Below are positions 7,536 to 60,713 of a DNA stretch of 61,049 bases, in pieces (position 1 is the first letter of the stretch; each line of letters opens with the position of its first letter). The notes below the pieces were generated by a model that made no database searches, was not told where the DNA came from, and was given only the letters and a program-made list of their open reading frames with translations. The translations under genes and the position numbers were made by a program. Source of the stretch: Selenomonadaceae bacterium (GTDB taxonomy: Bacteria; Bacillota; Negativicutes; Selenomonadales; Selenomonadaceae); the NCBI GenBank assembly GCA_017444245.1, contig JAFSXD010000001.1, positions 1 to 61,049 of the forward strand, in the 5' to 3' direction.

Positions 7536-9350
7536 TTATTCAAGCACAAAATTTTCATTCGCCGCGATAAATTTTTCTGCGTCCTTGAAGTTGGGAAAAT
7601 TTTTTTTAATCTTATCGAAGTCCCAATCCCACCACTTAACTTTCTGCAACGCGTCAATAATTTCCTGCGAAAAGCGATAATCAATAATCTGCGCGGGATT
7701 GCCGGCAACTATCGCGTAGGGCGGAACATCTTTTGTGACTACCGCGTTGTCCTCAATTATCGCGCCGTCGCCAATCACAAGCGGATTATCGGCGTCACTT
7801 GCAATTAAAGTTGCATCTGAATTTATTTTCACATCCGAGCCGATTAAAATTTTGTGCACTCCGTTTTGAATTTGAGTGCCTTCAAAATCATAGACGCTGA
7901 CAAAATTTTTTTCGGGCTTGCGGAAAAATTTTACTTTCACGTTGTCCAAAATTGAAGTGTAATTGCCGACGTGCATTTCCCCCAAAACATTTTTGCAACT
8001 GAACAAAATTTTTTTCGCGTAACTTTCTTTGCCAAGAGAAATTGCAACATTCCCGCCGACTAAAAAAATTCTTTGATGAACTGTTCGACTTTCGTCGCTA
8101 AATTCATTCCCTGCAATTTCGCCGTAAGCCATGCCTTCAGCAAAAAATTTTGGGAAATTTAAATTTGGAATTTGAAAAACTCTTCCGTCCAAAATTGCAT
8201 CTTGAGGAATTTGAAATGACTCAAGTATTTTCCGATGCTCATGAAAATTATTTCCCGCCATAACGACAGCTATTTCAAAGGAGGGCGGGTCTATAATTTT
8301 TCCGCCAAGCTTTTCGTAGAAAATAATTTCTCTTCCCTCAACAATCGCGTAGCCGACGATGTTTATAAAATCTTTTTCCTCAAACGGCTTGATGTAATTG
8401 TAAAGTTCATAGTTGAACGGATTCGTACTCCAAAGCAACGTCCTCTTTCCAAATTTCGATTTAATGGAAAGCGTTTCACTCAAGCCGCGTTTTTTCAAAA
8501 ATTCATTGGCAATTTTTACCATGTCGTCGGCAACTTGAAATTGCACTCTTCGTTGAAGATGATCTACAATTTCCAAGTAATCATCTCTGGAATTTACGTA
8601 CTCGCTGTAATTGATTAACTTAACATTATCGCAATCAGCAAATTCTTTTTCCAACAGAGGATTTATTTTTTTTCGTCTGGTCGCCTTGATTATCGAGGCT
8701 TTAGTTTCGTCATAAGCCGTTTCGATACCAAGCATGATAACCAGCAAAACTTTTTCGGGAATCAACGAACGGATTTTTTTGTAATTCTCTACAATTTCTT
8801 CCGGCTCAAGAGGTCCTTCGTATTCAAAGTTTTCACGGAAACGCCGTAGCATTTCGTAAGTATATTTCGCGTCGCAATACCACGCATCTTTTCCTGAAAC
8901 GTAGTCAGCCCACTTTTCTGAATCAGTCAAATCGTCCCAAGCTTTGAAAACTATACGAGCTCCGGTTTTTTTATTCCGATAAACATTCGCGTAAGTGTCA
9001 ACCAACGTGCTCAAGAAAATCACGTCGTAATTTCCGGAAAAAATTTCTGTTTCAAAACTTCTTGCGTCAATGAAAGGAAAATTTTTCGCCATGTCGTTTA
9101 TTTCTTCGGCGGGCAGGTAAGTTGATTCGATTATGTGCACGCTGTGACTTTGGGCGGAAATTAAAACTCCATGTTCGTTTACAAAATTTGTTTCTAAATC
9201 AACTTTGCCTAAGGATTGGAGAATTTGAAGTATTTGCAGAAGATCGCACGGACCTTTCATCAAAATTCGCGGTGCATTTTGCACAGTAATTTTTTCGGCG
9301 TCACTTGCTTGCGAAAAATATTTTTTAAGAGAAATCTCCTCAACCCAAAT
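7536..9350 (-). CDS. C-terminal fragment of a frameshifted multidomain glycan-modifying enzyme (unknown middle region plus left-handed beta-helix acetyltransferase)
   Basis: The frame continues directly from the C9 tract (..IWVEEISLKKYF..). The C-terminus GSDVKINSDATLIASDADNPLVIGDGAIIEDNAVVTKDVPPYAIVAGNPAQII is a hexapeptide-repeat acetyltransferase. The track ORF (to 9461) has a spurious N-terminus. Confidence 0.75.
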   Translation of the reverse strand: MWVEEISLKKYFSQASDAEKITVQNAPRILMKGPCDLLQILQILQSLGKVDLETNFVNEHGVLISAQSHSVHIIESTYLPAEEINDMAKNFPFIDARSFETEIFSGNYDVIFLSTLVDTYANVYRNKKTGARIVFKAWDDLTDSEKWADYVSGKDAWYCDAKYTYEMLRRFRENFEYEGPLEPEEIVENYKKIRSLIPEKVLLVIMLGIETAYDETKASIIKATRRKKINPLLEKEFADCDNVKLINYSEYVNSRDDYLEIVDHLQRRVQFQVADDMVKIANEFLKKRGLSETLSIKSKFGKRTLLWSTNPFNYELYNYIKPFEEKDFINIVGYAIVEGREIIFYEKLGGKIIDPPSFEIAVVMAGNNFHEHRKILESFQIPQDAILDGRVFQIPNLNFPKFFAEGMAYGEIAGNEFSDESRTVHQRIFLVGGNVAISLGKESYAKKILFSCKNVLGEMHVGNYTSILDNVKVKFFRKPEKNFVSVYDFEGTQIQNGVHKILIGSDVKINSDATLIASDADNPLVIGDGAIIEDNAVVTKDVPPYAIVAGNPAQIIDYRFSQEIIDALQKVKWWDWDFDKIKKNFPNFKDAEKFIAANENFVLE

Positions 9351-10234
9351 GGGGGGGGGTAGGAATTTAGTTGTGATGCGACTTCTCCTACAGTTGTAAT
9401 TTGTGGAAAATTTAATTTTGCGTAAATGAATTGTTCGACGCCCATGCCGAGCACGCGGCACGAAAATAAAAAATGTTGCAGACGATTTTCCACCGTGTCA
9501 AGGCAATAAAAACCGACTGCACCATAATCACCGAATTTGTCACGCACAAAAATCAATGCGCAATTATAGCGATCGTCTTCAACCAATTTTTCCAAATCAG
9601 ATTTTGAATCGCGGCGTTTCGTGAAGTTCAGCTGATTCGTTCGCGCAACCAACTCCGCAATGCGCTCAAGATTTTTTCTGCAGTCATGGGAAATTGCAAG
9701 CTGAATGTTGGCACTCTGTAAAAATTCTTCGTTAGACGCGGCGGATTTTTTTTCCGATTGCTTTTTCTCCAAAATTTTGTACCGGTTCAATCGTTCGTGT
9801 TTGGCGTCAGAAATTTTCAGCGAATCGGCCGCGCTATAAAGTTCGTCAAGATTTTTTGCGTCAAGCGTCATAATCTCCGGCAAATAAAATTTCGCCTCGC
9901 CCAAATTGCTTGAGTTGTCGTCGACGAACAAAACATTTTCTGCGCGAAGTCCCATATCGTCAAGCATGGACTTTATACGTTCGCCCTTAGGCGTCCAATC
10001 TATTGACGGAAAAACGAATAAATCCCAAATGTCCCACGCGATTAATTTTTCTTTGACGGGCTGAAAATCATTTTTTGAACAAATTGAATTGATAATGCCT
10101 GCGTCCGTTAATTTTCGTAGTGTTGAAAAATTTTTTTCAATCGGTGTAACGGGAATTTCTGAAGTTATCGTCCCCGCCCAAAATGTTTCGTCCAAATCCC
10201 AAATTACGAGCTTAACTTTTGTGATGTCAAACAT
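9260..10234 (-). CDS. N-terminal fragment: FkbH-like HAD-IIIC phosphatase domain
   Basis: Motifs seen: MFDITKVKLVIWDLDETFW (DxDxT), LFVDDN, RTNQLNFTKRR, DKFGDYGAVG and FLFSCRVLGMGVE. The last ~27 codons after the C9 tract are out-of-frame tail. Confidence 0.8.
   Translation of the reverse strand: MFDITKVKLVIWDLDETFWAGTITSEIPVTPIEKNFSTLRKLTDAGIINSICSKNDFQPVKEKLIAWDIWDLFVFPSIDWTPKGERIKSMLDDMGLRAENVLFVDDNSSNLGEAKFYLPEIMTLDAKNLDELYSAADSLKISDAKHERLNRYKILEKKQSEKKSAASNEEFLQSANIQLAISHDCRKNLERIAELVARTNQLNFTKRRDSKSDLEKLVEDDRYNCALIFVRDKFGDYGAVGFYCLDTVENRLQHFLFSCRVLGMGVEQFIYAKLNFPQITTVGEVASQLNSYPPPFGLRRFLLKNIFRKQVTPKKLLCKMHREF
9351..9359 (-). repeat. homopolymer C9 (minus strand) that splits the FkbH-HAD/acetyltransferase gene
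   Basis: There are nine G on the plus strand. The upstream frame reads ..SQLNSYPPP and the downstream frame ..PPPIWVEEISL. C10 or C7 would fuse the two frames. Confidence 0.9.
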
Positions 10235-24492: not shown

Positions 24493-26424
24493 TTAATATT
24501 GTTCCATTGTTGAACCGATATTGCCGATACGAATTTCGCCCAACTGCAACTTGAGATCGTCAAGAGAATTTCTAAGCTCGTCAACGTAAGTTGAAAATTC
24601 TGCGGCGGTTTCGCCTTGAGAAAAATAAAATCTCATGTCAAGTTGATTTCCTTCATAAATTCGGAAAGTCAATTCAGCCGCGCCGATATTGTCCGTCAAA
24701 ACGCAAATGCGCACCCAAGTTTCTTTTTTCTCTTGTCCTGTCTCGTTGTCGCGCGTGCTTTCATCGTAAACATTCAAGTAAGTCGGATAACTCATTTCGT
24801 TTACGTTTAAATAGATCGGCACCATCATCTGGAAGGAGCGTTGATTTTGTACGGGGGCGGTGAAGTTGTCGCCGCTCATGGATTTGCGAAGAGAATTTGA
24901 AAATTCCCAAATATCTTTGCCGGCACTTCTGAATTGTCGACCTTTGTAACTCATGGGAAGTTTTGCCATGTCGCAAAGTTGCATGAACGCCCAAAGTCGC
25001 GGAAGGTCCGGCAAATTTTGTTGAACTGCCGCTTGCCGAACTGTCGCCGGAACATTTTGTTGACACAGCCGCAACAAATTTTGCAAGTGACGATTTTCGA
25101 GCAATGAAAAAGTTTTCTGCGGATTGTTCACGAAATTTTGAAGTGTCGCCGCGTCTTGTGGATTCATTTCGGTATTTTGGAGGAGGAATCGCGCAAGACT
25201 TTTCATCGTGTCGAGAGTGCGCGGGGAATTTTCAAGCGGCTGACGCATAATTTGCGCGTGGGCGTCCTTCATTTGTTGACGGACGCTTTGTTGTTGTGCC
25301 ATGAGTTCTTCCGTCGACGTTGGCTGTTGGAAATTTTGTTGAGGTTGTTGCTGATTCATTGGTTGCTGGAAATTTTGTTGAGGTTGTTGCTGATTCATGG
25401 GTTGTTGGAAATTTTGTTGGAAAGGTTGTTGCTGATTCATGGGTTGTTGAAAATTTTGTTGGAATGGTTGTTGCTGATTCATTGGTTGTTGGAAATTTTG
25501 TTGGAAGGGTTGTTGTTGATTCATTGGTTGCTGAAAATTTTGTTGGAAAGGTTGTTGCTGATTCATTGGCTGCTGGAAATTTTGTTGAGGTTGTTGTTGA
25601 TTCATTGGTTGCTGGAAATTTTGTTGGAAAGGTTGTTGCTGATTCATTGGCTGTTGAAAATTTTGTTGAGGTTGTTGCTGATTCATTGGTTGCTGGAAAT
25701 TTTGTTGAGGTTGTTGCTGATTCATTGGTTGCTGGAAATTTTGTTGAGGTTGAGCATTGTCGGCGGCGGGGCGCGGCATAAAAAATTTGACGAGCTTGTT
25801 TAAAAAGTTCATCACGTCGGATTCGCCCTGCGGTTGCTGATTGGCTTGCGACAATGGCTGTGAAAGTTGCGTCAAAATTTCGTACAACGCCGGCGGAAGT
25901 TGGTCAGGGATTTTTGAATCAAGCAATTCAAATGAAGATTTTGTCATGAGAACGGGCTCAAGTGCATTGCCGCCCTCCGCTGAAACCAAAAAATTTTTGA
26001 ACTGCGACAAAAGCGTTTGTATCTCCGGCGAAATTTTCATGGAAAATCCTCTGTCCGCCAAAGAGCCGAGCTGAAAAAGCATTCTGCCGAAAGTTGAAAG
26101 TTGTTCCATAGAAAAACGTTGGCTTTCAATGGTACTGCCGACGCCTTTTCCTAAAGTTTCCTGCAACGAGAGAGCTTGCTCAAGAATATTTTTGACGATC
26201 TGTCCGATCTCGTTGGGAATTTTTGTCATACCAAGTTTTTCGGCGGTTGCAATACGCTCAAGAGTTCCCGCCAAATCGCTTATGGCTGTTCGTAAGGCAA
26301 CGTTGGTCTGCGGTCTAAAGCCGGCAACTGTACCTTCGTCTCGACGCTGAACGCCTTCTTGTTCGCGTAAAGGTCGTTCCGTCGTTACCGGGCGAATTCC
26401 TATTGCGCCTGTATTTATTGGCAT
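24493..26424 (-). CDS. Gln-rich repeat protein, YlqG/FliK-like (possible hook-length-control-type C-terminus)
   Basis: It sits directly downstream of rnhB, as ylqG does in Bacillus. The C-terminal ..VRICVLTDNIGAAELTFRIYEGNQLDMRFYFSQGETAAEF..LKLQLGEI resembles the FliK C-terminal fold pattern. The assignment is tentative. Confidence 0.45.
   Translation of the reverse strand: MPINTGAIGIRPVTTERPLREQEGVQRRDEGTVAGFRPQTNVALRTAISDLAGTLERIATAEKLGMTKIPNEIGQIVKNILEQALSLQETLGKGVGSTIESQRFSMEQLSTFGRMLFQLGSLADRGFSMKISPEIQTLLSQFKNFLVSAEGGNALEPVLMTKSSFELLDSKIPDQLPPALYEILTQLSQPLSQANQQPQGESDVMNFLNKLVKFFMPRPAADNAQPQQNFQQPMNQQQPQQNFQQPMNQQQPQQNFQQPMNQQQPFQQNFQQPMNQQQPQQNFQQPMNQQQPFQQNFQQPMNQQQPFQQNFQQPMNQQQPFQQNFQQPMNQQQPFQQNFQQPMNQQQPQQNFQQPMNQQQPQQNFQQPTSTEELMAQQQSVRQQMKDAHAQIMRQPLENSPRTLDTMKSLARFLLQNTEMNPQDAATLQNFVNNPQKTFSLLENRHLQNLLRLCQQNVPATVRQAAVQQNLPDLPRLWAFMQLCDMAKLPMSYKGRQFRSAGKDIWEFSNSLRKSMSGDNFTAPVQNQRSFQMMVPIYLNVNEMSYPTYLNVYDESTRDNETGQEKKETWVRICVLTDNIGAAELTFRIYEGNQLDMRFYFSQGETAAEFSTYVDELRNSLDDLKLQLGEIRIGNIGSTMEQY
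25318..25757 (-). repeat. in-frame 39/42-nt tandem repeat, about 10-11 copies (PMNQQQP[F]QQNFQQ)
   Basis: I counted 10 PMNQQQP units in the translation, 5 of 13 aa and 5 of 14 aa. The DNA copies are near-identical. Confidence 0.95.
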
Positions 26425-41984: not shown

Positions 41985-44900
41985 TTACTCCCAATGACGA
42001 TTGCCGGTGTTGACGGATTTAATATTCTGCCAGCCGCCGTTGCCGTCTGAAAGTCTGAAGTTGGTCTCTGTGCCGACACCCGTCACGACAACTCCGCCGC
42101 CGTCCTTAAGCACAACGTCGATTCTGCCGCTGGAAATAGCCGTCTTATCATTGTCGATGTCGTCCAAAGTTACGTCATAGAGCCAGACGAGGTCTTCAGT
42201 GCCAACAGTGGTAATCGTATCCGTGCTGGAACGGTAGACGCCTTCACTGGTGGTGTAGCCGTAGGACTTGAAGAAGAAGAAGGTCTCTTCGCCGCCGTTG
42301 CTACCAACGAGTGAATTGGTTTCGCCGCCGCCGCCCCACAGGCTCGTGGAAGTGTTGCTACCGCCGGACAAGATCGTATTGTTGGACGCGCCGCCCGCCA
42401 ATGTCAAATTGCCGTTCTGGACTGAAGACGCGTTGACCATTCCGATGCCGCCGTAGGAGACACTGTCAAGGCGTGAATCGTTCAGCCAAATGTTGACGTT
42501 GGACGTATCGGAGGAAACATTCAGAACGTCGCGCGGACGGCTGTTGCTTACGCCGCCATAGTAAATGTCGGTTTCGCCGTCATATGTGAAGGTGTTGACG
42601 CTGTTGCTGACACCAAACTTGATGTTGTAAATCTTGCTGTCGTTCGCAAATTGCGCTCTTACAGCTTTGTGATCGCTCGTCGTAAAGTCGCCGCTGATAA
42701 CAACAGTTTCGTCGCCCGAGAGGGAAACTTCCAATCTGGTTGAAGTCGCGCTGACGCCTTTGTAATTGTCACGATCGCCCAAGTACAGCAAGTCTGCCGA
42801 AGAAACGTTGACGTCTTGATCTTGACCCTTGTAGAAGTTGAATCCGGTAATCGTAGTTCTGCCGCTGCTGTAGGTTACGCCGTTAGAACTGCCGAAGTAG
42901 AAGTTGTTGCCGGATTTTGTAGTATCGTTGCCACCGGAAACGAGCACGTCATTGCCGCCGCCGACTGCAACATACTTGCGAGAACCTGCGTCTGCACTGC
43001 CGGAAACCGTAATGCTTTCGTTAGCACTTGAACCCCAAACAGTAGCTCTGGCTTCGCTTGCGACGTTGAGTTTCGTGATGTTGGAAAGTTTCGCAGAACC
43101 GAGCGTGACTTCAAACGCAGTGGTTACGGAATCAGTTACGTAAATGCCGCCGGCTTTTTCGCCTTTGTAGTAAGCACTCAAATCAGCATTCGTGCTAACC
43201 GTTGCCGTTGCATCAGGAGCGATGAAGGATACAGGCGTTCCGTTGACCAAGAATCTGTACGCGCCGTCAACCGTCGACAAACCGTTAAAGTTGATTGAAG
43301 CGTTGCCGCTGGAGGCTACAACAGCATCTCTCAATTTGAAGGAAAGGCTGTCAATGCTGTCCGCGAGCAGGACGTTTGCGCCGCTGTCCGCATCAAAGCC
43401 GCTCTTCCAACCGTAGACATCAGTCTTGCCGCTTGTGAGGGTAATCGTTGCGCCGCGTTGTCCCGATCCGCTGTCCGCACTTGCAAGCGAAACTGTATCA
43501 GTACCTGCGCCCGGATTAATCGTATCGTTAGGTCCTGCAACAATCGTGTCGTTCAAGGAAGAACCGACGACTGTATTTTCTGCGCCGCCGTTGATGCTGG
43601 AAATCATGAGCGCGCCGCCGTTGATTGTAATTTCGCTGGCGTCAAGCAGACTGCCATAGTTGCCCGCCCAGATAAGATTCTTTCTGTCGCCGACGTTCGC
43701 ATTTGTAATAATCGCCTTCGTTGCCGTAGCCGGATCGTAATCTGAACCGCCAACCGTAATTGTTGAGCCGTTAGCTATCGCAATCTTGTTGCCGTCAAGC
43801 TGAACGTTATCCGGAGTAAGTCTTGCACTGGTTGAAAGTTTCGTCGCAACGATAACGTCTCTGTCATCAAAGCTGTAGTCCGCAATTTCAAAAGCGTTCG
43901 TGTCATAGAAGTAGTCGATACCTGCGCCGCCTTCGATGTAATCTGAACCGGAACCGTAGATCGTATCAGAGCCCGAGCCGCCCAAAATGGTTGCCGCGCC
44001 GCCTCTGTTGTAAATGTACGAGCCATTGTCGCCAGCTTTGACGTAGTTGTTACCTGTCGCCTTAGGTCCAATCAAGATTGAAACATTTCTTGCGCTGGTG
44101 CTGCCAAGAATCGTGTGGTTGGTTGCGAATGCGGCAATATCGGAATCAGTATTCATACCGACAGCAATAAGGGTGTTCGGGCTACCGGTTGCGTCGATAA
44201 CCGCAGTGCGAATCGTGGAAACTCCCGTGCGCAGACCTTCAAGATATTCAACGTTAATCGGGTTGCTGATGTAGGACTGCAAGGTTATGTTGCGCGGGAA
44301 TGTGCCGTCAGCTGCACCAAGCGGTTCGTCGCCGTAAATGTTGACGCCCGTTCCTTGAGCAACAGTTTCAGGAGAATCAACCGTTGCACTTGCATAACCG
44401 GCAACTGTTCCATATGTCCCATCGAAAGCTTGCGTGGTTTCGTTATAAATGTTGTAGAAGTCGTGGAAAGCCTCAACCGTCGTGTTGCCGCCGTTCAAGC
44501 TGCTTGCCAACTGATTAACCAAGCTGTCGCGGTCGATACGGATTTGAGCAACAACAGAGTCTTCAGCAGTGACATTGCCGATGCTGTCAACATACAAGTA
44601 ACCGATACTGTCATTGACTTCAACCGTTGCACTTGAACCGACGCTGTAAACGCCCGCGCCAACCGTAATTGTTGAGTTCTTCGCAATGCCGCCGGTAATT
44701 GTGACATTCGGTTTTGCACTGCCGGATTTGCTTACGTACATCTGAATTGCGGATGCCGTTGAATCCAACACGCCGTCGCTACCGCCGTTCATGGTTACGC
44801 CAACGTCATTAATCGCCATAGCAACCGTATCTGTGGACGCCGCCATAGCTGAATCGTAAGTGAAGCCCGCCGCAAAGACGCTGTCGCTCGCAGTCTTGAC

Positions 44901-47276
44901 TGTGTCGCCAACCTTCAAGCCGCCGACGCTTACGATAGCATCATTTTCACCGGAAACGATGTAGGCACTGTCAAGGTTGGAGCTTGAAGATGCGCCCAAT
45001 GTGACTTCTGCCGCGTTAACCGTGACTTTAGCCGTACCGCCGGAAGAAACCGTAGAATCAATATCGTAGTAAACTGTGCCGCCGGTTACGCTGTAAGCAT
45101 CGCCGTCAACAACGTCGTTAACCGTGATTGAGGATGAGCCGCCAAGCGTGAAGTCAACCGCGCTAACTGTATTCGTAAGTTTCGATACGTCAAATTTATC
45201 GTTAATCGTGAAGTGGCTGTCGCCTGAAACCGTTGCGCCGGAGTTCAAACTCGTGATTCCTGCGAGACCCGCAACGGAAACGTCTGAATCGAGTTGTACA
45301 ACGATTTCATTATTGCTGTCGTGAGCAACGACACTTGCGCCGTTAAAGCTACCGCTAATTGTATTAGCTTCGCCGGCAACTGTTACTGTAGCGTCAGCCG
45401 CCATAACTTTCAAGGAATCGCCTGCGCCGAGTGATACACCTGCGCCGGTTGAATCCATAACTACCGCGCCGACTGATGCGCCCGAGACCGTCCAAGCTGT
45501 GCCCATAACTTCAACGCCGGAAAGTGTTGCACTGGAAGGTGCGCTGATTGTCATGTTGCCCGTCAAGCTGGAAACTGCGGAGACTGACGCGCCGTTTACA
45601 CTGCTTGCCGTGAGTATCGCATAGACGCTGTCCGTTGCTCTTGCAAATGTTGCAGTAACTCCGCCAACGTTAACTGTACGTGCGCCGCTACCGCCCTTTA
45701 CGAGCCAGTTGCTACCTTCGTTGAGTGCCGACGCTGCAGTTACGAGTGCTGAACTGTTGAGAGATACACTCTGTCCGCTGCTCACCGCAAGGGTATCGCC
45801 CGCCGCGCCTACAACTGTTCTTGCTTGACCGCCGGACAACAACATTGTGCCTGCGCCCGTACCGGAATTGACTGTGATGTTACCCGAAGCGTCGAGTACT
45901 GCATTAATCGTCGCGGCACTGTCATCTTCAAGATCAACATCCCAAGAAGAGCCGCTGATAATTCCCAAAGCATCGTGATCGCCGACCGCGTTAATTGTCA
46001 CGTTGCCGCTTTCAGGATTGAAGAGAGCCGCCTGCGCACCGGTGGCACCTGCTGTGATAGTGCCTTGCACGCTGTCAAACGCAACCGTATCATTACCGAG
46101 TTGAACAGCACCTGCACTGCTTGCAACTGTCCAACGTCCATTCGCCGCAAGAGCGTCAACCGCTTTGATTACGGATGAGTCAGTAGATTGACTTACGACA
46201 GAGGCGGTTGAACCGCTAGCAAGAGCAACTGCGCCGCCGCTTGCACCGTCGCCAACAGAGAACACGCCGGCATTGTTCGCATGCGCCGTCATCAACGTGC
46301 TGTCTACCGGGTAAACTTCCGCCTGCGTCGTAGCAACACCGTTGAGAATTACGCCGTTTACGTCTACTGTATCTCTGGGGCTTGAACCTGAACTTGAGAA
46401 TTCTACGCCTGCGCCATTTTCTACGTTCAACGCAAGATAATTGCCTGCGCCCTTAGTAGCCGTGAATGATTCGCCAACTGCGGCGGCACTCAAAGCACCA
46501 AATACTACGTTGTTGCCGTTAGATACGTTCCAAATTTGATTTGCGTCAACAGAAGAGAGCGCCGCATTGCCTGCCGCCTGAATCGTTACTGCGTCGTTTG
46601 AGTCTGTCGAACCTGTCAACGTAACCGCATTACTACTCAAAGAGACATTGATTGACGCGCCGTTAAGAGTTTGACGGAACTGTGCCGGTGCGGCAAGTGT
46701 AGCCTGCACTGCGCCGCGCAAGCTGGAATAATTTACGGCATTGTTGCTTGCCGTCATGCCAAGAGACGCGGCATTTGAAACAGCCACCGTATCAAGCAAG
46801 GAGTCATTGTTGGTATATCTGACCAAGAAAGTATCAGCTTCGCCGCCGCCGGTCAACCAGAGAGGACTGCTAACAGAGACATTCTCGGCGAACGTCAATT
46901 CTGGAGTAGTTGATCCTATTGAAGCTTCCTCAGCTGTGCCAACGCTGGCGTATCCGTAGGCTGTAACAGATTTATTTTCTCCCTTAGTGATTACAGCGGC
47001 ATTAGCCGGAACACTAGCCTCACCACTGCTGAAGGCGTAGACAGTTGCGGAAGAAGTTACCGTATCAGTGCGATAAATAACGCCGTCAACATCGACTGTA
47101 TCGCCTGTAACGGTCGTAGGTGTACCACTATCGTCGACGCCACCATTCACCGAAATAGCGCCACTGGATGCCCTGATGGTTGGGTTAGCGTCCAAAGCAA
47201 ACAGTTGCAAATCAAACTCCCAATTTTTCGTTGTCATAAAGAATGGCGTCAAGACCTCGTTACATGAGAGGGACAA
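41985..47276 (-). CDS. giant Gly/Ser/Thr/Ala/Val-rich surface/secreted protein with RTX-type GGxGxD repeats
   Basis: GGSGSDTIYGSGSDYIEGGAGIDYFYD is present and there are no Cys residues. The start is either the TTG at 47276 (11 nt after AAGGAGG) or the ATG at 47237 (MTTKNWEFDLQLFA..). The first ~80 codons of the track ORF lie in the leader. Confidence 0.75.
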   Translation of the reverse strand: MSLSCNEVLTPFFMTTKNWEFDLQLFALDANPTIRASSGAISVNGGVDDSGTPTTVTGDTVDVDGVIYRTDTVTSSATVYAFSSGEASVPANAAVITKGENKSVTAYGYASVGTAEEASIGSTTPELTFAENVSVSSPLWLTGGGEADTFLVRYTNNDSLLDTVAVSNAASLGMTASNNAVNYSSLRGAVQATLAAPAQFRQTLNGASINVSLSSNAVTLTGSTDSNDAVTIQAAGNAALSSVDANQIWNVSNGNNVVFGALSAAAVGESFTATKGAGNYLALNVENGAGVEFSSSGSSPRDTVDVNGVILNGVATTQAEVYPVDSTLMTAHANNAGVFSVGDGASGGAVALASGSTASVVSQSTDSSVIKAVDALAANGRWTVASSAGAVQLGNDTVAFDSVQGTITAGATGAQAALFNPESGNVTINAVGDHDALGIISGSSWDVDLEDDSAATINAVLDASGNITVNSGTGAGTMLLSGGQARTVVGAAGDTLAVSSGQSVSLNSSALVTAASALNEGSNWLVKGGSGARTVNVGGVTATFARATDSVYAILTASSVNGASVSAVSSLTGNMTISAPSSATLSGVEVMGTAWTVSGASVGAVVMDSTGAGVSLGAGDSLKVMAADATVTVAGEANTISGSFNGASVVAHDSNNEIVVQLDSDVSVAGLAGITSLNSGATVSGDSHFTINDKFDVSKLTNTVSAVDFTLGGSSSITVNDVVDGDAYSVTGGTVYYDIDSTVSSGGTAKVTVNAAEVTLGASSSSNLDSAYIVSGENDAIVSVGGLKVGDTVKTASDSVFAAGFTYDSAMAASTDTVAMAINDVGVTMNGGSDGVLDSTASAIQMYVSKSGSAKPNVTITGGIAKNSTITVGAGVYSVGSSATVEVNDSIGYLYVDSIGNVTAEDSVVAQIRIDRDSLVNQLASSLNGGNTTVEAFHDFYNIYNETTQAFDGTYGTVAGYASATVDSPETVAQGTGVNIYGDEPLGAADGTFPRNITLQSYISNPINVEYLEGLRTGVSTIRTAVIDATGSPNTLIAVGMNTDSDIAAFATNHTILGSTSARNVSILIGPKATGNNYVKAGDNGSYIYNRGGAATILGGSGSDTIYGSGSDYIEGGAGIDYFYDTNAFEIADYSFDDRDVIVATKLSTSARLTPDNVQLDGNKIAIANGSTITVGGSDYDPATATKAIITNANVGDRKNLIWAGNYGSLLDASEITINGGALMISSINGGAENTVVGSSLNDTIVAGPNDTINPGAGTDTVSLASADSGSGQRGATITLTSGKTDVYGWKSGFDADSGANVLLADSIDSLSFKLRDAVVASSGNASINFNGLSTVDGAYRFLVNGTPVSFIAPDATATVSTNADLSAYYKGEKAGGIYVTDSVTTAFEVTLGSAKLSNITKLNVASEARATVWGSSANESITVSGSADAGSRKYVAVGGGNDVLVSGGNDTTKSGNNFYFGSSNGVTYSSGRTTITGFNFYKGQDQDVNVSSADLLYLGDRDNYKGVSATSTRLEVSLSGDETVVISGDFTTSDHKAVRAQFANDSKIYNIKFGVSNSVNTFTYDGETDIYYGGVSNSRPRDVLNVSSDTSNVNIWLNDSRLDSVSYGGIGMVNASSVQNGNLTLAGGASNNTILSGGSNTSTSLWGGGGETNSLVGSNGGEETFFFFKSYGYTTSEGVYRSSTDTITTVGTEDLVWLYDVTLDDIDNDKTAISSGRIDVVLKDGGGVVVTGVGTETNFRLSDGNGGWQNIKSVNTGNRHWE

Positions 47277-47654
47277 GACGCACTCCACCTCCTTAAAACA
47301 TTTACAAAAAACTTTTCGCCGTTGAGGCGAGTGCGGGCTTTTTGACAATGCGTAGAAGTTGAACATACGCATTCCTAATCTTAGGGACGCCGCCCGATAG
47401 CGTTCATTAACGACGCTTGCGCTCTCCGCGAAGGAAGCTGAACTCGTCGATTCAAAAAATTTCTTACCCCTCCTTCTTGCGGATACGCACTGCGCCAAAT
47501 ATTTCATCCGACACCGCAAACCACGAAGTCGGCAGTAGATTAGAAATGGAACTCAAAGAAAGAGGATGAGTCCGCGACCAAGCTTTTGGCGAGTGATCAA
47601 TTCGCCGCCAGGTCAACACGTCGCCCGAGACCTCCTTGTCTCAATCGCGGCTAT

Positions 47655-53862: not shown

Positions 53863-54061
53863 CTCCGTTACTGAAAACTTATAGAAAGTTGTAAACTCTT
53901 ATGTTTCATTCCTGATTCATCGCGTCCGCTTTTGCCGAAGCTACTCACGTTTGGTGTAACGCTCCACAGGCTTCAATTCCCCGCTAACGTACGGGTATTT
54001 TTTCAATCAGCTCGCGTATCGTTTTAAATTTATCGCCGCTTGTAAATCCCGGTCTATTTCG

Positions 54062-54278: not shown

Positions 54279-55961
54279 TCATGCCAAAACTTTTTTCAAG
54301 CCGTCAATGTATTCTTCCGTCGACGGCAAATAGATGTGTTGCCTGCTCTCAGCTACAGGTTCGGCAATTTCCGCAATAAGGTTGTATGCAAATTGCGGGC
54401 GATCTTTGGATGCGTACATGTCCTTCAAGGTATCGCCGTCCAACGTCTTACTAAGTTTATCGGCTATCGTGTCAGCTTCCGTTTTGTTAAGAATAAAATC
54501 AACTGAAACTGTCTGAAATTCATCTTCCAAAATCTTGCACATTTTCTTGCTGTCATCTTCGATAATTTCATCGGTTACAGCTTTTGAAACTTTGCTTGCC
54601 GCAGTGCTCGATAACCAAGCAGCAATTAACATTCCTACTGGTCCAAAGGGAGCACCCAACATCGCGCCGCCAATTCCGCCTGCGACTCCTGCGCCAGAGT
54701 TCACAACATTTTTGAAAAGTTGAGACGCCGAAATTCTGCCGCGAAGAATATTTATCACGTCGCCCGCTGACATAATCGCAACCGTTGCAATTCCCGTGAC
54801 AGCATTCCCGCGCAGTAACTTAGACGCACTTTTCATTGCCGCCGCCCCGTAAATACTCGTGCCTTCTCTGAAAGCATTCACCAAATGTGCTGACATCTTC
54901 GGACCCATAGCTTTAACGAGTGCATCGGACGCAGGAATAAGCATTGTGTTGAAGCCCGCCTTCGTAATTTGTCCCGCTACAATCGAACCTGCCCATGCCA
55001 TGCCGCCGACTTGCAAGCCCGCTTTAACCGAATTTTCCAAAGCAACTTCAAAAGATTCACCGTTCCAAATGCAAACCGCAAAATTTATCGCCGCAGAAAT
55101 TCCGCCACTGTACGCGCCAATTTTTATTCCGTCTATCGCGTCATAAGTCAATGATTCGATTGTTCCCGCCTTCGCAATATTTTTTGCCTGCTCGTAAGTC
55201 ACATTGCCTTTGCGGATAATGTCTTCAGCTTTTTTGACGCCGCGAATTTGTCCTCTATCAATTCGACTTTGCATTGCTCTAACCGCGTCGTCGTACTTAT
55301 CGGCGGGAACTTCAATTTGCATTGGCGAACCGTCACGATTGTAATAGCGAAATTCTCCGTTGTGGAAACATTCTTGAACACACTTTGAGCCGGTGGCACA
55401 GTACTTGCTTTGAATGTTCGCGCCGTTTACGAGTCTGTCCGCACCGTTTTTAGCGTTGTCGTCGCCGACAATGTGTGCGTCTTTGCCTGTCATTCTGTCG
55501 TACAAGTCATTGGCGCGTTCTGCGGCAAAACCATGCCCCTTTGAACCGTGAAATTTTTCTTCAAAGTAAACCTTTTCTGTACCAACAAAAGCACCTTGTG
55601 CAAGTCCTGTATTTTTTGCGCCGCGTGAAGGTTCATTATTTGAAAAATGAAACCCTTCCGCACTTTCTTCTTCCTCTTCAAGATCAACAAAATAGCCTTC
55701 TTCGCCGAACCTGCTATCTACGAGTCTCTTCAAAGTTTTCACTGCCTCGTATTCGTCAGGTCCATCCGCCGCGATAGTAATTTCCGTGCCTTTAGTCAAG
55801 CCCATGCTCATAATCATGAGAATACTTTTCGCGTCAACTCTTTTGCCTTTCGCTTTAATCCAAACTTTTGATTTGAACTTGGACGCAGTCTGCACGAACA
55901 CCGACGCGGGGCGCGCATGAATACCGGTTTTGTTTTCGATAGTAGTTGTAAGCTCAAACAT
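54279..55961 (-). CDS. HPr (PTS phosphocarrier) domain fused to a ~470-aa domain of unknown function with a Gly/Ala-rich membrane-active-looking C-terminal half
   Basis: The N-terminal 88 aa align to HPr: KTGIHARPASVFVQTASKF (His15), VDAKSILMIMSMGLTKG (Ser46), EITIAADGPDE. Next comes KGHGFAAERANDLYDRMTG..GDDNAKNGADRLVNGANIQSKYC, followed by GGISAAINF.., AGLQVGGMAWAGSIVAG.. and GAGVAGGIGGAMLGAPFGPVG. Confidence 0.8.
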   Translation of the reverse strand: MFELTTTIENKTGIHARPASVFVQTASKFKSKVWIKAKGKRVDAKSILMIMSMGLTKGTEITIAADGPDEYEAVKTLKRLVDSRFGEEGYFVDLEEEEESAEGFHFSNNEPSRGAKNTGLAQGAFVGTEKVYFEEKFHGSKGHGFAAERANDLYDRMTGKDAHIVGDDNAKNGADRLVNGANIQSKYCATGSKCVQECFHNGEFRYYNRDGSPMQIEVPADKYDDAVRAMQSRIDRGQIRGVKKAEDIIRKGNVTYEQAKNIAKAGTIESLTYDAIDGIKIGAYSGGISAAINFAVCIWNGESFEVALENSVKAGLQVGGMAWAGSIVAGQITKAGFNTMLIPASDALVKAMGPKMSAHLVNAFREGTSIYGAAAMKSASKLLRGNAVTGIATVAIMSAGDVINILRGRISASQLFKNVVNSGAGVAGGIGGAMLGAPFGPVGMLIAAWLSSTAASKVSKAVTDEIIEDDSKKMCKILEDEFQTVSVDFILNKTEADTIADKLSKTLDGDTLKDMYASKDRPQFAYNLIAEIAEPVAESRQHIYLPSTEEYIDGLKKVLA

Positions 55962-56019: not shown

Positions 56020-56049
56020 ATTCTACCCCCCCCCTCAAAGATTTGTCAA
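56020..56049 (-). promoter_or_regulatory. promoter of the HPr-fusion gene with a G9 tract in the spacer
   Basis: On the minus strand: TTGACA (56049-56044), aatctttga, G9, then TAGAAT (56025-56020). The spacer is 18 nt. A 58-nt leader ends in AAGGAGG and the ATG at 55961. Confidence 0.65.
56026..56034 (-). repeat. homopolymer G9 (minus strand) inside the promoter spacer
   Basis: I counted nine C on the plus strand (56026-56034). Confidence 0.95.
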
Positions 56050-56093
56050 GAATAGATTCAGAAAATTTTTGTCTTGAATTCATTCTACTTCCT

Positions 56094-56432
56094 TTAGTTT
56101 GCAAAATACTCCGCGATTTTCCAGCCCGCCGATTCAACCATTGCAACGGTCAAGATGCTTGGATGTATCATTGGACATGAAATTGGAATCCACATTCTCT
56201 TGGACAGGAATTGTTTGTTAAGTTTCTCCTGCGCAATCTTTGTTGCAAGAGTTTCTGAAATTGTAACATTGGAAACTTTTACCAACGCCATCGTCATTGT
56301 CGTAAGTGCTTTTTCGTCGACCGCGTCAAGCTCATAGGGTATCATTATATGATTTTTCCCCGACAACACGTCACGCGCATGGTGTTTAATGACGTCTTCG
56401 CACTGATGTTTTTCGGCTTTTGTCATCGCCAT
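56094..56432 (-). CDS. small DUF697-like paralog A (112 aa)
   Basis: MAMTKAEKHQCEDVI.. ..MVESAGWKIAEYFAN. It shares its termini and leader with paralog B. The DUF697 assignment is from memory of the family pattern. Confidence 0.65.
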   Translation of the reverse strand: MAMTKAEKHQCEDVIKHHARDVLSGKNHIMIPYELDAVDEKALTTMTMALVKVSNVTISETLATKIAQEKLNKQFLSKRMWIPISCPMIHPSILTVAMVESAGWKIAEYFAN

Positions 56433-56640
56433 GAAACATTCCTCCTCTGTGTGACTGAAAAATAATTTACCTGTGCATAAGATACAACAATCGCAATTTC
56501 ATTTTGTAATTGTCATTTCCCCATTCAGAAAATTTTTCACGGTTTAATAAATGTGAAGGAGCGCACGTCCTTGTACGCCCCCTCAACCCAAGTTCAAGTG
56601 CTGAACAGTATCCGTTTTCATGAAGAAATTTTAGTGGAGA

Positions 56641-56829
56641 CTATTTCATTTGTTTCAATTTTTCATCGTAGTATTTCACTCTGGCGTAATGTCTTTTTGC
56701 AATGCCATAGTGTGGACCTGCCTCAACGTCGTTGGACGCATTTTTAGCCGCCGCCCATTCGCGTTTGGCATTTTTCAAAGCACGATCCCGCGCACTTTCC
56801 GCAAGTTCACGCTTTCTTTCTTCCGTCAT
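56641..56829 (-). CDS. small charged helical protein (62 aa)
   Basis: MTEERKRELAESARDRALKNAKREW.. with an AAAGGAGGTG RBS. The track ORF starts further upstream, inside paralog B. Confidence 0.5.
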   Translation of the reverse strand: MTEERKRELAESARDRALKNAKREWAAAKNASNDVEAGPHYGIAKRHYARVKYYDEKLKQMK

Positions 56830-56833
56830 ATTT

Positions 56834-57184
56834 TCACCTCCTTTGATTCGCAAAATTTTCCGCGATTTGCCAACCCGCCGATTCAATCATTGTGACAGTC
56901 AACGCTGCTGATGCAATGTTTCCAAGTCCGGGAAAAATTTTCACGAACTCTGAAACAACCATTTTGCCTGCCAATTCTTTCAACGCGTTAACCGCCGTAG
57001 TTGCGGCAAGAGTTTCTGACATTGAAACGTTGAAAGTGTTTGCCAATGCCATCGTCATCGTCGTAAGTGCCGCCACGTTAATCGGCGTGCCGACTCCAGG
57101 TATCAGTGAACCACCAATGACAGCCCACGCGTGACCGTGAATGATGTCTTCGCACTGATGTTTTTCGGCTTTTGTCATCGCCAT
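56834..57184 (-). CDS. small DUF697-like paralog B (116 aa)
   Basis: MAMTKAEKHQCEDII..GGSLIPGVGTPINVAALTTMTMALA..FPGLGNIASAALTVTMIESAGWQIAENFANQRR. Confidence 0.65.
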   Translation of the reverse strand: MAMTKAEKHQCEDIIHGHAWAVIGGSLIPGVGTPINVAALTTMTMALANTFNVSMSETLAATTAVNALKELAGKMVVSEFVKIFPGLGNIASAALTVTMIESAGWQIAENFANQRR

Positions 57185-57393
57185 GAAACATTCCTCCTCT
57201 TTGTGACTGAAAAAATAATTTACCTGTACATAAGATACAACAATCGCAATTTCATTTTGTAATTGTCATTTCCCTATTCAGAAAATTTTTCACGGTTTAA
57301 TAAATGTGAAGGAGCGCACGTCCTTGTACGCCCCCTCAACTCAAGTTCAAGTGTTGAACAGTCTCCGTTTTCGTGAAGAAATTTTAGTGGAGA

Positions 57394-57450
57394 CTATTTC
57401 ATTTGTTTCAATTTTTCTTCGTAGTACTTTCTACTTCGGCGTATCTTTTG
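57394..57450 (-). pseudogene. decayed remnant of a second copy of the 62-aa gene
   Basis: The 3' end ctatttcatttgtttcaattttt.. is identical to 56641-56663. After that it diverges, with an internal deletion. Confidence 0.55.
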
Positions 57451-57461
57451 CCGTCCTGTCG

Positions 57462-57821
57462 TTAACTCCTTTGATTTGCAAAATTCTCCGCGATTTGCCA
57501 ACCCGCCATTTCAACCCTTTTATAAGCCGTTGGGTCAATCACCATAGGGATAAAACAAAATGGGAACATCAGAGGCTTCATCAACCCTGTTATCAACCCT
57601 GAAACGAAGGGCAATTTAGCCAATTCTTCTTCGACGTTTTTCAGCGCGTTAACCGCCGTAGTGTTAGCAAGAGCTTCCGTCATCGAAACGTTGAAAACTT
57701 TTGCAAGAGCCAGCGTCATTTTTGTGAGTTCTGCCAAATTCACAGGCGCGCAACCAATCACAGCGGCACACTTGCAAATGATGTCCTTGCACAATTTTTT
57801 TTCAGCCTTTGTAATTTTCAT
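57462..57821 (-). CDS. small DUF697-like paralog C (119 aa)
   Basis: MKITKAEKKLCKDII.. ..VEMAGWQIAENFANQRS. Confidence 0.6.
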   Translation of the reverse strand: MKITKAEKKLCKDIICKCAAVIGCAPVNLAELTKMTLALAKVFNVSMTEALANTTAVNALKNVEEELAKLPFVSGLITGLMKPLMFPFCFIPMVIDPTAYKRVEMAGWQIAENFANQRS

Positions 57822-57909
57822 AAAAACTTCTCCAATCGATTAAGTGAAAAGTTATCTTCGACGCGCCCCGCGCATTTTGTACGAGGACGCGTTTTTTTTC
57901 TTCCGTCAA

Positions 57910-58269
57910 TTATTGACGTCTTTGATGCGCAAAATCTTCTGCCATTTGCCAGCCCGCCAATTCAACCGTTGTGCATGTCAACGAAACCGGCAAAGTCTCT
58001 CCCCTGTTGGGAAATTTTTCTATGTACTCTCTAACATTGATTCTGCGTTCAACTTCTTTCAGCATGTTAACCGCCGTAATTGTTGCAAGAGTTTTAGTCA
58101 TTGAAACCTTAAACATTTTCGCCAACGTCCGCGTCATCTTTGTAATTTCTTCCAGATTAACGGTAGGACCAAATTTTGTTTTGAGCGATCCGCCGATGGA
58201 ATGCTTTGTGTGATAGCGAATGATTTGTTCACATTTTTGACGTTCGGCTTTGGTAATCAACGTTCTCAT
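57910..58269 (-). CDS. small DUF697-like paralog D (119 aa)
   Basis: ..ITKAERQKCEQII.. ..VELAGWQMAEDFAHQRRQ. Confidence 0.6.
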   Translation of the reverse strand: MRTLITKAERQKCEQIIRYHTKHSIGGSLKTKFGPTVNLEEITKMTRTLAKMFKVSMTKTLATITAVNMLKEVERRINVREYIEKFPNRGETLPVSLTCTTVELAGWQMAEDFAHQRRQ

Positions 58270-58315
58270 GAAAAATTCCTCCTGTAATTCAGAAAAGTTT
58301 TACCGACAAAATTTT

Positions 58316-58579
58316 TTACTGTGAAAATTTGTCAACGAGCAAGTCGAAAATATTTCTTGCCAAATCACGCGGCGTGTGTGACAAATCCGCGCCCTTCGAC
58401 CTGTTGTCGTGTTTGCACATCGCCTGCAAGTTCCAATCGCTGTCCGGTCCGCCGTATTTTTGCGGGATAATGTGATCCACGTCCATTTCGGACTTTCTGA
58501 AATTCTTTCCGCACTCGGGGCATTTGTGCCAGCCGCCGTGCGTTTTGTGCGAATCGAAGTAGTCTTTCCTGTAACCCAT
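58316..58579 (-). CDS. mini HNH endonuclease (87 aa)
   Basis: CPECGKNF..MDVDHIIPQKYGGPDSDWNLQAMCKHDNRSKG. The ATG at 58579 follows an AGAGGAGGAAA RBS. Confidence 0.8.
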   Translation of the reverse strand: MGYRKDYFDSHKTHGGWHKCPECGKNFRKSEMDVDHIIPQKYGGPDSDWNLQAMCKHDNRSKGADLSHTPRDLARNIFDLLVDKFSQ

Positions 58580-58739
58580 AAAAAAATTTCCTCCTCTGTA
58601 AATCACCAAAAAATTCATTTAAAGTTGCTTGCAATATTCAGTTTTCAAAGAACCCTTCAAAAAAGTTTTTACTTTTCTGTTGTCGAGCGTCGAAGTATTT
58701 GTCGCCGACCGCTGTTGAAACCTCCTACTGTAATAATAA

Positions 58740-59015
58740 AACACTCGGGATTTTATTTTGTAATTGTCATTTCCGCGTTCAGAAAAATTTTTTTGGAAGT
58801 TTTATTCTAGTCTCTTTAGTGTGCAAAATTCTGCGTTCAGAAAAATTTTTTTGAAATTTATTCCGGTCTCTTTCGTGTGCAAAATATTCCGCGATCTGCC
58901 GACCCGCCGATTCAATTTCATCTTCTCTGTGTGACTGAAAAAATTTATCCATGTGTAAGATACACCAAGCGCAATTTCAATTTGTAATTGTCACTTCCGC
59001 GTTCAAAGATTTTTT
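58740..59015 (-). pseudogene. stack of collapsed paralog copies: leader fragments fused directly to paralog 3' ends
   Basis: 58745-58790 and 58960-59010 repeat the leader core (attttgtaattgtcatttcc..ttcagaaaa). 58866-58916 is a paralog 3' end (..IESAG.QIAEYFAH) joined straight to the RBS-proximal leader (ctctgtgtgactgaaaaa). Confidence 0.6.
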
Positions 59016-59093: not shown

Positions 59094-60368
59094 ATGGGTT
59101 TAATTCAAGCGGCGATTAGTGCTGTCGGCGGAACGCTCGGAGATCAATGGAAGGAACTTTTCTATTGTGACAGTTTAGGCGCGGATATTTTGGCGGCAAA
59201 AGGACATCGTCGCACGCGCAGAGGAAGTTCCAACGCCGGCGACGATAACATCATTACGGACGGGTCGCTTATCTCCGTGAACAACGGGCAATGCATGATG
59301 ATCGTTGAGCAAGGAAAAGTTGTAGACTTCTGCGCGGAGCCCGGCGAATACACGTACGACAAAGGAACTGCGCCTTCGCTTTTCTCCGGTGGCAGTCTCG
59401 CTTCAAACATTCAAGCAGTTTTTCATGAAATTGGCAGACGTTTCACTTTCGGCGGCGACACGGGAAAAGATCAGCGCATTTACTATTTCAACACGAAAGA
59501 AATTGTCGGCAACAAGTACGGTACGCCGAGCCCCGTTCCCTTCCGCGTCGTCGATTACAATATCGGCTTGGACGTGGACATTGCGATAAAATGTTTTGGT
59601 TCGTACAGCTACAAGATCGTCAATCCGATTTTGTTTTACACAAACGTTTGCGGCAACGTGGCAGAAACTTATAATCGTTCGGAAATTGATGCGCAGTTGA
59701 AAACGGAATTGATGACGGCGTTGCAACCTGCCTTCGCAAAAATTTCTGAAATGGGCATTCGTTACAGCGCACTGCCGGGACATACTCAAGAAATTGCCGA
59801 CGCGTTGAACGAAGTCTTAAGCAAGAAATGGGGCGAACTGCGCGGCTTGCAAGTCGTATCTTTCGGCGTCTCCAACGTCAGCGCAAGCGAAGAAGATGCC
59901 GCAATGATTAAGGAAATGCAACGTAACGGCGCATTGAGAAATCCGGCAATGGCGGCGGCTCATTTGACGGGCGCACAAGCAAGCGCAATGCAAGCGGCGG
60001 CGAACAACACGGCAGGCGCAATGACAGGATTCATGGGCATGGGCATGGCGCAGAACGCAGGCGGTGCTAATCCCGCAAATCTTTTCGCTATGGCTCAACA
60101 ACAAACTCAACCTCAACAGAATCAACCGCCCACATGGAAATGTCCGTCTTGCGGCAACGAAGGCAATCGAGGAAATTTCTGCATGAATTGCGGCGCAAAA
60201 AAACCTGCACCTGTCGCCGGTTGGAAATGCGAATGCGGCGCGACCAATACAGGAAGATTCTGTTCAGAGTGCGGCAAACCGAAACCTGCTTCAGACGAAT
60301 GGACTTGTTCATGCGGCGCAGTCAACAAAGGAAAATTCTGCGCGGAATGCGGAAAACCCAGAGCGTAA
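59094..60368 (+). CDS. SPFH-domain protein of the COG4260/YdjI type with three C-terminal zinc ribbons
   Basis: MGLIQAAISAVGGTLGDQWKE.. Then CPSCGNEGNRGNFCMNCG, CECGATNTGRFCSECG and CSCGAVNKGKFCAECG. The ATG at 59094 follows a GGGGGG run. Confidence 0.75.
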   Translation: MGLIQAAISAVGGTLGDQWKELFYCDSLGADILAAKGHRRTRRGSSNAGDDNIITDGSLISVNNGQCMMIVEQGKVVDFCAEPGEYTYDKGTAPSLFSGGSLASNIQAVFHEIGRRFTFGGDTGKDQRIYYFNTKEIVGNKYGTPSPVPFRVVDYNIGLDVDIAIKCFGSYSYKIVNPILFYTNVCGNVAETYNRSEIDAQLKTELMTALQPAFAKISEMGIRYSALPGHTQEIADALNEVLSKKWGELRGLQVVSFGVSNVSASEEDAAMIKEMQRNGALRNPAMAAAHLTGAQASAMQAAANNTAGAMTGFMGMGMAQNAGGANPANLFAMAQQQTQPQQNQPPTWKCPSCGNEGNRGNFCMNCGAKKPAPVAGWKCECGATNTGRFCSECGKPKPASDEWTCSCGAVNKGKFCAECGKPRA

Positions 60369-60389: not shown

Positions 60390-60713
60390 TTGCTGGTAAT
60401 ATCGATTGTACTTGCAGTATTTATCGGATATCTTTTTCGCGCCACTTTGATTGATTCGATGAGCAACGTTAAAGTCGCTCAAGAGGCGCAGGAATATTTG
60501 AACAAGGACAGCGTAGACTTAACGACGGAAATTGACACTTACCTTTACACGAACATCACCGTAATTCCGAAGGACAAAGACGAAGACGAAGACCAAAAAC
60601 AAATTGAAGATGACAATAATGACGATTCGGATGATGACGCGGACGACGATTCGGACAATGATTCAGACAATGATTCGGACAGCGGAAGTGACGGCGGCAA
60701 TGGTGACAATTGA
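60390..60713 (+). CDS. single-pass membrane protein with a poly-acidic (D/S/N) tail
   Basis: An N-terminal TM helix (LVISIVLAVFIGYLF) and a C-terminal DDNNDDSDDDADDDSDNDSDNDSDSGSDGG tail. TTG start. Confidence 0.5.
   Translation: MLVISIVLAVFIGYLFRATLIDSMSNVKVAQEAQEYLNKDSVDLTTEIDTYLYTNITVIPKDKDEDEDQKQIEDDNNDDSDDDADDDSDNDSDNDSDSGSDGGNGDN

Follow-up and report, generated by a model that had tools for sequence, protein, structure and literature searches.

How does a tandem block of small genes come to have near-identical upstream regions and alike protein termini around interiors that have strongly diverged? This question is raised by a 61,049-nucleotide stretch of Selenomonadaceae bacterium DNA (assembly GCA_017444245.1, contig JAFSXD010000001.1, positions 1 to 61,049), hereafter called the window, in which four full-length paralogs (A to D; 32-52% pairwise protein identity) belong to an array whose genes all lie on the minus strand. 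For these genes coordinates run from high to low in the direction of transcription, the region extending from 59015 to 56057. The order begins with two collapsed paralog remnants and an HNH gene; paralogs D, C and B follow, then a gene for a 62-amino-acid (62-aa) protein and finally paralog A. An earlier reading of the letters without database searches (the sequence-only reading) had proposed concerted evolution of regulatory and terminal parts with diversification of the middle, as in cassette-type variable families. Its observations prove largely correct, and its interpretation is partly supported. We consider it probable that the array is a lineage-specific tandem family of DUF697-like genes that has been shaped by duplication, by deletion at repeats and short homologies, and by local gene conversion, with B as the canonical copy and the other paralogs altered in their loops. 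The features to which the following paragraphs refer are these:

58922-59015, minus strand: L3, an extra leader or promoter copy that adjoins the divergent SPFH gene and is 80-83% identical to leaders A and B
58836-58921, minus strand: F3, a collapsed A-type paralog, recognized by alignment to the 3′ end of A and its downstream sequence
58778-58835, minus strand: F2, a second collapsed A-type paralog, consisting of a gene-end stub and downstream sequence
58736-58791, minus strand: L1, a leader copy, followed by a unique 5′ region to 58580 and predicted to serve the HNH-D-C unit
58316-58579, minus strand: HNH gene, 87 aa (Pfam HNH, E 1.1e-12)
57910-58269, minus strand: paralog D, 119 aa, hydrophilic, with both PGxG loops degenerate
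57868-57909, minus strand: 5′ fragment of the 62-aa gene behind D, located by repeat finding and homology search
57462-57821, minus strand: paralog C, 119 aa, with the first loop deleted and the second turned into a hydrophobic insert
57394-57449, minus strand: 3′ fragment of the 62-aa gene, which marks the start of the near-identical A/B tract
57185-57393, minus strand: leader B, with hairpin (57338-57307), 18-nt box (57273-57256), TAnnnT hexamer and ribosome-binding site
56834-57184, minus strand: paralog B, 116 aa, the canonical copy, with both PGxG loops kept
56641-56829, minus strand: intact 62-aa gene, with a strong ribosome-binding site
56433-56640, minus strand: leader A, with hairpin (56585-56554), 18-nt box (56520-56503) and ribosome-binding site
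56094-56432, minus strand: paralog A, 112 aa, with both loops degenerate

The leaders of A and B had been described as near-identical, together with about 40 nt of the genes that they precede, and global alignment bears this out. Across the tail of the 62-aa gene, the leader and the first ~14 codons (57435-57141 versus 56680-56390), 282 of 295 columns are identical (~96%), and past codon 14 the identity falls sharply to 40-77%. Repeat finding and self-BLAST give the same overall picture of the array. Set against the 96% identity of this tract is a synonymous divergence (dS) of ~0.8 across the rest of the A and B coding sequences. The ortholog of leader B in L006, a lineage that is ~85% identical to the window overall, is visibly further in the alignment from both window leaders than these are from each other.

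L001 and L002, two more assemblies from this species, are collinear with the window at 99.55% identity. The window and L001 differ at 24 positions over 5.4 kb, four of which lie in leader B (57275, 57228, 57215 and 57201). At each of the four A/B-specific sites in 57275-57201, leader B of L001 has the state found in leader A, and leader B of L002 has it at 57201 only. Leader A is identical in the three assemblies, and their paralog coding regions differ by a single-nucleotide polymorphism in C. Conversion of the leader is therefore ongoing, and concerted evolution has been caught in progress by a strain-polymorphic tract of 75-195 nt that separates 99.5%-identical strains. Comparison of the array between strains, which the sequence-only reading had recommended, shows leader B mosaics, and comparison with sister lineages shows indels.

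Conversion explains the likeness of the promoter region and the 5′ end, but the same process had also been invoked for the 3′ end, where it is not needed. The C-terminal 18 codons show 2-6 synonymous codon differences per paralog pair, and the corresponding columns are nearly invariant across 67 family members; purifying selection is therefore enough to account for the alike 3′ termini. The ‘variable core’ requires some qualification. It is indeed diverged, but it consists of two variable segments (B residues 18-38 and 71-95) around a conserved middle (39-70), which together with residues 1-17 and 96-113 makes up the conserved portion of the paralogs. Each variable segment covers a PGxG loop, is 23-59% identical at the nucleotide level and contains indels. 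Frameshifted homology was looked for in these segments, and none was found.

Conserved ends around variable interiors, active gene conversion and a nuclease gene at the array head are all features that might be expected of programmed variation, in which an expression site and donor cassettes, or nuclease-stimulated shuffling, would diversify the protein cores. The pilE/pilS and vlsE-type families share the first two of these features with the array. However, the conversion observed here strikes the promoter region and 5′ end rather than the variable segments, the coding cores are the same in three assemblies bar the one polymorphism in C, and the orthologs are under purifying selection. Each copy has its own ribosome-binding site, silent cassettes are absent, as are the promoterless donors and single expression site of the pilE/pilS and vlsE-type families, and the proteins are without surface-antigen features. 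Between the paralogs, these segments show indels as well as changes of every base type, so the pattern is not of the reverse-transcriptase (diversity-generating retroelement) type. No recombinase, invertase or reverse transcriptase domain was found in the HPr-fusion, SPFH and condensation-domain neighbours, a scan that did not extend to every open reading frame (ORF) of the window. With no silent cassettes, no core mosaics between strains and purifying selection acting on C and D, we abandon the comparison with cassette-type families and regard programmed variation as very improbable. Ordinary recombination suffices, and in this respect the array opens no new class of system.

If the cores are not being shuffled, they could simply be decaying. 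On this account A, C and D would be functionless duplicates and B the one working gene, and the pseudogenes would in time be reduced to collapsed copies such as F2 and F3, which the array already contains. All three copies have lost P85 and G88, which belong to the loop motifs and are >90% conserved in the family, and the ratio of nonsynonymous to synonymous divergence (dN/dS) is higher for A, C and D than for B. In addition, the D ortholog of L005 has a degraded C-terminal motif, and A is without orthologs. The selection estimates nonetheless speak for maintained genes in the case of C and D. Orthologs of B, the only copy to keep both loops, have a dN/dS of 0.15-0.24, with the proportion of nonsynonymous differences (pN) below that of synonymous differences (pS) at p ~1e-10. 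For C and D orthologs dN/dS is 0.32-0.44 (C, 0.32-0.39; D, 0.37 with p = 5.5e-4), and pN is again significantly below pS (p = 9e-5, 5.5e-4 and 2.3e-3); these are therefore diverged but maintained genes, not pseudogenes. Their reading frames are intact and preceded by ribosome-binding sites in several lineages, and C-like and D-like proteins make their own clusters in independent metagenomes. Decay is thus contradicted for C and D, and as a description of the array it appears unlikely.

True remnants do exist upstream of the HNH gene. At least three collapsed copies had been reported there, with a paralog 3′ end joined directly to leader sequence. Such junctions are confirmed for two remnants, F3 and F2; what lies beyond these are the two extra promoter or leader copies L3 and L1. 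F3 keeps the last 16 codons (IESAGRQIAEYFAHER, 58916-58869; tblastn E 2.8e-4 against the C-terminus of B) and downstream sequence; an ATG/AATG microhomology marks its junction with L3, whose ribosome-binding site, decayed, lies at the join. In F2 only ~20 nt of the gene end and the downstream sequence are left, and the junction with leader sequence falls within the heptamer CGCGGAA (TTCCGCG on the plus strand), which is common to leaders and paralog 3′ ends. The short homology of the tccgcg type that had been proposed for these junctions is thus present in F2 and replaced by ATG/AATG in F3. Both remnants resemble an A-type unit, that is, one with no 62-aa gene behind it. The 62-aa gene has also left fragments: its 3′ tail is repeated at 57449-57394, as had been noted, and its 5′ end is likewise duplicated after D (57909-57868). 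The encoded protein is basic and helical, is conserved in L003 and partly in L010, and matched no significant family in the Pfam, NCBIfam and PADLOC scans.

Given that the contig is metagenomic and that 300-nt repeats can be misjoined, one might ask whether the near-identical repeats and fragments arose during assembly. The two other assemblies derive from different samples and name their contigs differently, have the same order at 99.55% identity and keep most of the paralog-specific differences, and we therefore find an assembly artefact scarcely credible.

The leaders are ~208 nt long. A 13-pair terminator-like hairpin lies just after the 62-aa gene, and it is followed by an A/T-rich stretch, an 18-nt box, a TAnnnT hexamer that is present in every leader copy, and a GGAGG ribosome-binding site. 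Because these elements stand in series, each leader would be an intergenic terminator followed by a predicted promoter region rather than a long RNA leader. An Rfam scan of the array returned only a sub-threshold chance match, and so the leaders hold no riboswitch or known RNA. The asymmetric box, GGAARTGACAATTACAAA, occurs four times in the window where 0.01 copies are expected (58998-58981 in L3, 58774-58757 in L1, 57273-57256 in B and 56520-56503 in A), and the leaders of L005, L010 and L071 contain it too, the L071 copy with one mismatch. It may co-regulate the units that it precedes. L3 carries the box, but its ribosome-binding site is decayed. L1 is collinear with the sole leader of L005-L008 (85.7% identity) and is probably the working promoter region of the HNH-D-C unit rather than a remnant.

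The sequence-only reading had instead pointed to a ~25-bp imperfect palindrome in each leader and suggested testing it as a repressor site. The palindromes are located at 56488-56512, 57241-57265 and 58962-58986, 3-5 nt away from where they had been placed. Their arms pair at 7 of 9 positions in A and B and at 4-6 of 9 in L1, L3 and the leaders of relatives, and the right arm is altered in strain L002. Palindromes of equal quality occur ~4.9 times per 250 nt in the window, so these do not rise above chance. The reading of the palindrome as an operator thus finds no support; the element conserved in its place is the 18-nt box.

Upstream of every promoter box, and also of the promoter of the HPr-fusion gene, there is a further repeated motif, which reads AAAAWTTTTCTGAA on the gene strand (56056-56070, 56523-56537, 57276-57290, 58287-58301, 58777-58791 and 58835-58849) and is similar to a CodY box in its left half and centre. 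We considered reading AATTTTCTGAA upstream of the promoter boxes as a CodY box and set this aside: the window has 24 matches to the full box where 14 ± 3.9 would be expected, which is not a convincing enrichment.

What family do the paralogs belong to? Scans of all four against Pfam, NCBIfam and PADLOC gave no significant family, and a direct test against DUF697 (PF05128; gathering score 27.7 bits) matched none of them at E <= 0.1. DUF697 is exemplified by the C-terminal domain of Escherichia coli YcjF and by forms linked to GTPases or dynamins. An exhaustive profile search with the window subfamily collected 162 cluster representatives, and 34 of the 90 that were scanned match DUF697, three of them above the gathering score. 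Against DUF697 these three proteins (P0053, P0067 and P0084) score 30.9-33.4 bits, and the profile of the window subfamily recovers them at E 7.8e-9 to 1.5e-6. When hhalign is used to compare that subfamily with proteins positive for DUF697, 115 columns align over the whole length (probability 99.6%, E 3.4e-24). Judged by these profiles, the paralogs are remote DUF697 relatives that would form small, stand-alone helical proteins. They share with DUF697 proteins full-domain homology and the motifs C-x2-I-I-H and E-x-x-G-W, and in B also P-G-x-D/G and I-P-x-x-G. In contrast to these, the window copies miss the Pfam model, stand alone at 112-119 aa, have lost the loop motifs in three of four cases and form a tandem array where the wider family is almost always single copy. 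Some of the remote matches are fused to Dynamin_N or MMR_HSR1 domains.

In B numbering, the positions that show little or no variation in the 67-member alignment are C11, I14, I15, M43, L47, P85, G104, W105 and A108. The constant termini that had been reported, TKAE+.C..II at the N-terminus and E.AGW..AE.FA at the C-terminus, are indeed kept in all four paralogs, and since they are nearly invariant in this alignment they are hallmarks of the whole family. In B the PGxG loops read IPGVG and FPGLG, whereas A, C and D have them in degenerate form or have lost them. The structure that AlphaFold2 predicts for B (predicted local distance difference test score, 81) has five helices, and its two low-confidence stretches are the PGxG loops. 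The array offers a hint on the DUF697 fold: the N-terminal, central and C-terminal helices are retained by each paralog, and the two proline-glycine loops are expendable or re-purposed. The model matched no fold in the PDB at E <= 0.001, a sequence search of the PDB gave chance-level matches only, and in the DUF697 literature we found the term mentioned in passing and no functional study.

Scans of GTDB species genomes and of viral contigs with the close subfamily returned no relative. The wider family was examined in 57 genomes, whose loci have no common neighbour; XRE-type regulators stand beside ~9 of the 57. Its main branch (L014-L070) is 60-88% identical across Betaproteobacteria, Treponema, Planctomycetes, Fibrobacter and Selenomonadaceae and also occurs on the conjugative plasmid LC623924.1, which suggests horizontal transfer. 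Near the N-terminus is a C-x4-H-x-H pattern (QCEDIIHGH in B, KCHAIIHSH in the wider family), and in paralog C (residues 11-18), as in its relatives from the window lineage, the histidines are exchanged for cysteines (LCKDIICKC), hinting at a possible metal-binding site.

The HNH gene poses a question of its own. Its product is 87 aa, or 100 aa from an upstream ATG, with the HNH domain at residues 33-77 of the longer form. The segment that carries it (window 58586-58284) is absent from L005-L008, and the ribosome-binding-site region is repeated on either side of it in direct orientation. Relatives of the array are arranged as follows:

L005-L008 (85-91% identical): SPFH gene, a single leader, D and C, and in L006 also B; without the HNH gene and the ~224 nt of collapsed copies between the box copies
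L010: an L3-like leader before a C-type gene that is intact, then a gene with roughly equal similarity to B and D, and last the 62-aa gene
L071: a leader and a single B-type gene
L011 and L072-L075: HNH gene directly before an intact B-type gene, at a different locus beside a larB-like gene
L004: an intact and a degenerate copy at the larB-like locus, without the HNH gene

Deletion junctions and presence/absence variants are thus visible in sister lineages. The arrangement of an HNH gene directly before a family member, in the window and at another locus in L011 and L072-L075, is reminiscent of toxin-immunity modules, in which the HNH protein would be the toxin and the DUF697-like paralogs its immunity proteins, with extra or orphan copies and displaced fragments accumulating behind. 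Contact-dependent inhibition (CDI), Rhs and HNH-type bacteriocin loci can similarly present an HNH nuclease gene, then several small paralogs with fragments nearby, and the tandem array with fragments at its head and two fast-diverging segments would suit such a role. Yet the HNH protein is a stand-alone domain of 87 aa without a delivery or trafficking region, it is dispensable in close relatives that retain D, C and B, and the wider family is almost always single copy and in none of the 57 genomes accompanied by this HNH gene. Moreover, the fragments are remnants of the small paralogs themselves, not displaced toxin tips. The PADLOC scan yielded no meaningful match, its hits being limited to weak HNH core-domain matches and B against the candidate model PDC-S29 at E 1.1e-3. 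We accordingly view a toxin-immunity module as decidedly unlikely. A different possibility is that the HNH protein and the paralogs constitute a functional module in which the loop segments determine specificity and are diversifying (dN equals or exceeds dS there in some pairs), and in which the nuclease acts on or is restrained by the paralogs, or stimulates recombination in the array. If true, the locus would represent a small system of nuclease and partner, with diversifying paralogs, that has not been described before, but on the present comparisons we would call it a long shot.

We therefore return to the tandem family of DUF697-like genes as the best explanation. The ancestral repeat unit would have comprised a promoter, a paralog, the 62-aa gene and a terminator. 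B is the canonical copy. In the diverged paralogs A, C and D both PGxG loop segments have been replaced, and the helices are retained at the N-terminus (C-x2-I-I), in the centre and at the C-terminus (E-x-A-G-W-x-x-A-E-x-F). HNH, D and C probably share one promoter region, and B (with the 62-aa gene) and A appear to have their own, near-identical ones. Units and the HNH gene would be gained or lost when promoter boxes, or the repeats at ribosome-binding sites, undergo unequal or homologous exchange with one another. Deletions at short homologies (CGCGGAA, ATG) would leave collapsed copies, and gene conversion keeps the promoter regions and 5′ ends of A and B alike. B may also act in partnership with its diverged copies. 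Birth-and-death tandem families with local conversion are a close parallel, given the unequal recombination between repeat units, deletion scars, sharply bounded high-identity tract and strain mosaicism at paralog-specific sites in the array. The array departs from this pattern in that the conversion observed is confined to the promoter region and the first codons, with coding bodies that are strongly diverged.

Several results weigh against this explanation, and readers should keep them in mind. For paralog A no ortholog was found beyond the 90%-identity cluster to which it belongs. Some pairs have dN equal to or above dS in the second variable segment, with 0 synonymous and 19 nonsynonymous codon differences out of 25 between B and D; plain relaxation does not fully explain this, and these alignments are near saturation. 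A consensus scan found no sigma-70-type promoter in the leaders, and their promoter function is for this reason a prediction. Finally, the linkage of the HNH gene to the subfamily at two loci is not explained by a tandem-family model.

The array has the same G+C content as its surroundings, and its DNA has no match among phage and plasmid records. All four paralogs start at ATG behind a GGAGG-type ribosome-binding site. Elsewhere the window looks like normal bacterial chromosome, with genes for DnaB, RF3, CarB, MutL and AddB. Three large ORFs on the minus strand (41985-47519, 7536-9461 and 24493-26424; 1844, 641 and 643 aa) have no Pfam match at E <= 1e-5. On one side the array is flanked by a divergent SPFH/Band_7 gene with zinc ribbons (59094-60368, plus strand), and on the other by a gene (55961-54279) whose 560-aa product carries an HPr domain at its N-terminus. 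At its C-terminal end the SPFH/Band_7_1 protein has a linker rich in Gln, along with three CxxC...CxxC zinc-ribbon repeats in tandem. The neighbouring gene at 60390-60713 encodes a very acidic, Asp/Ser-rich tail, and both genes are conserved in L005.

Further along, a RAGATH-18 RNA motif (53909-53970, minus strand; 73.8 bits against a gathering score of 44.9) lies just upstream of a 611-aa gene (53862-52027) whose product has a condensation domain and a weak match to a cyclic nucleoside monophosphate (cNMP)-binding domain. The HPr-fusion gene (54279-55961, minus strand) is located directly downstream of the array in both the window and L001. Its HPr phosphocarrier domain is matched at E 1.8e-30, and the remaining ~470 residues, including a glycine-rich hydrophobic C-terminal part, have no family match. 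Upstream of this gene is a strong promoter-like site, TTGACA-18-TAGAAT (56049-56020), whose 18-nt spacer contains a 9-base homopolymer (56027-56035; C on the plus strand, G on the gene strand). This tract is one G longer in L001, a length polymorphism of the kind able to switch promoter strength.

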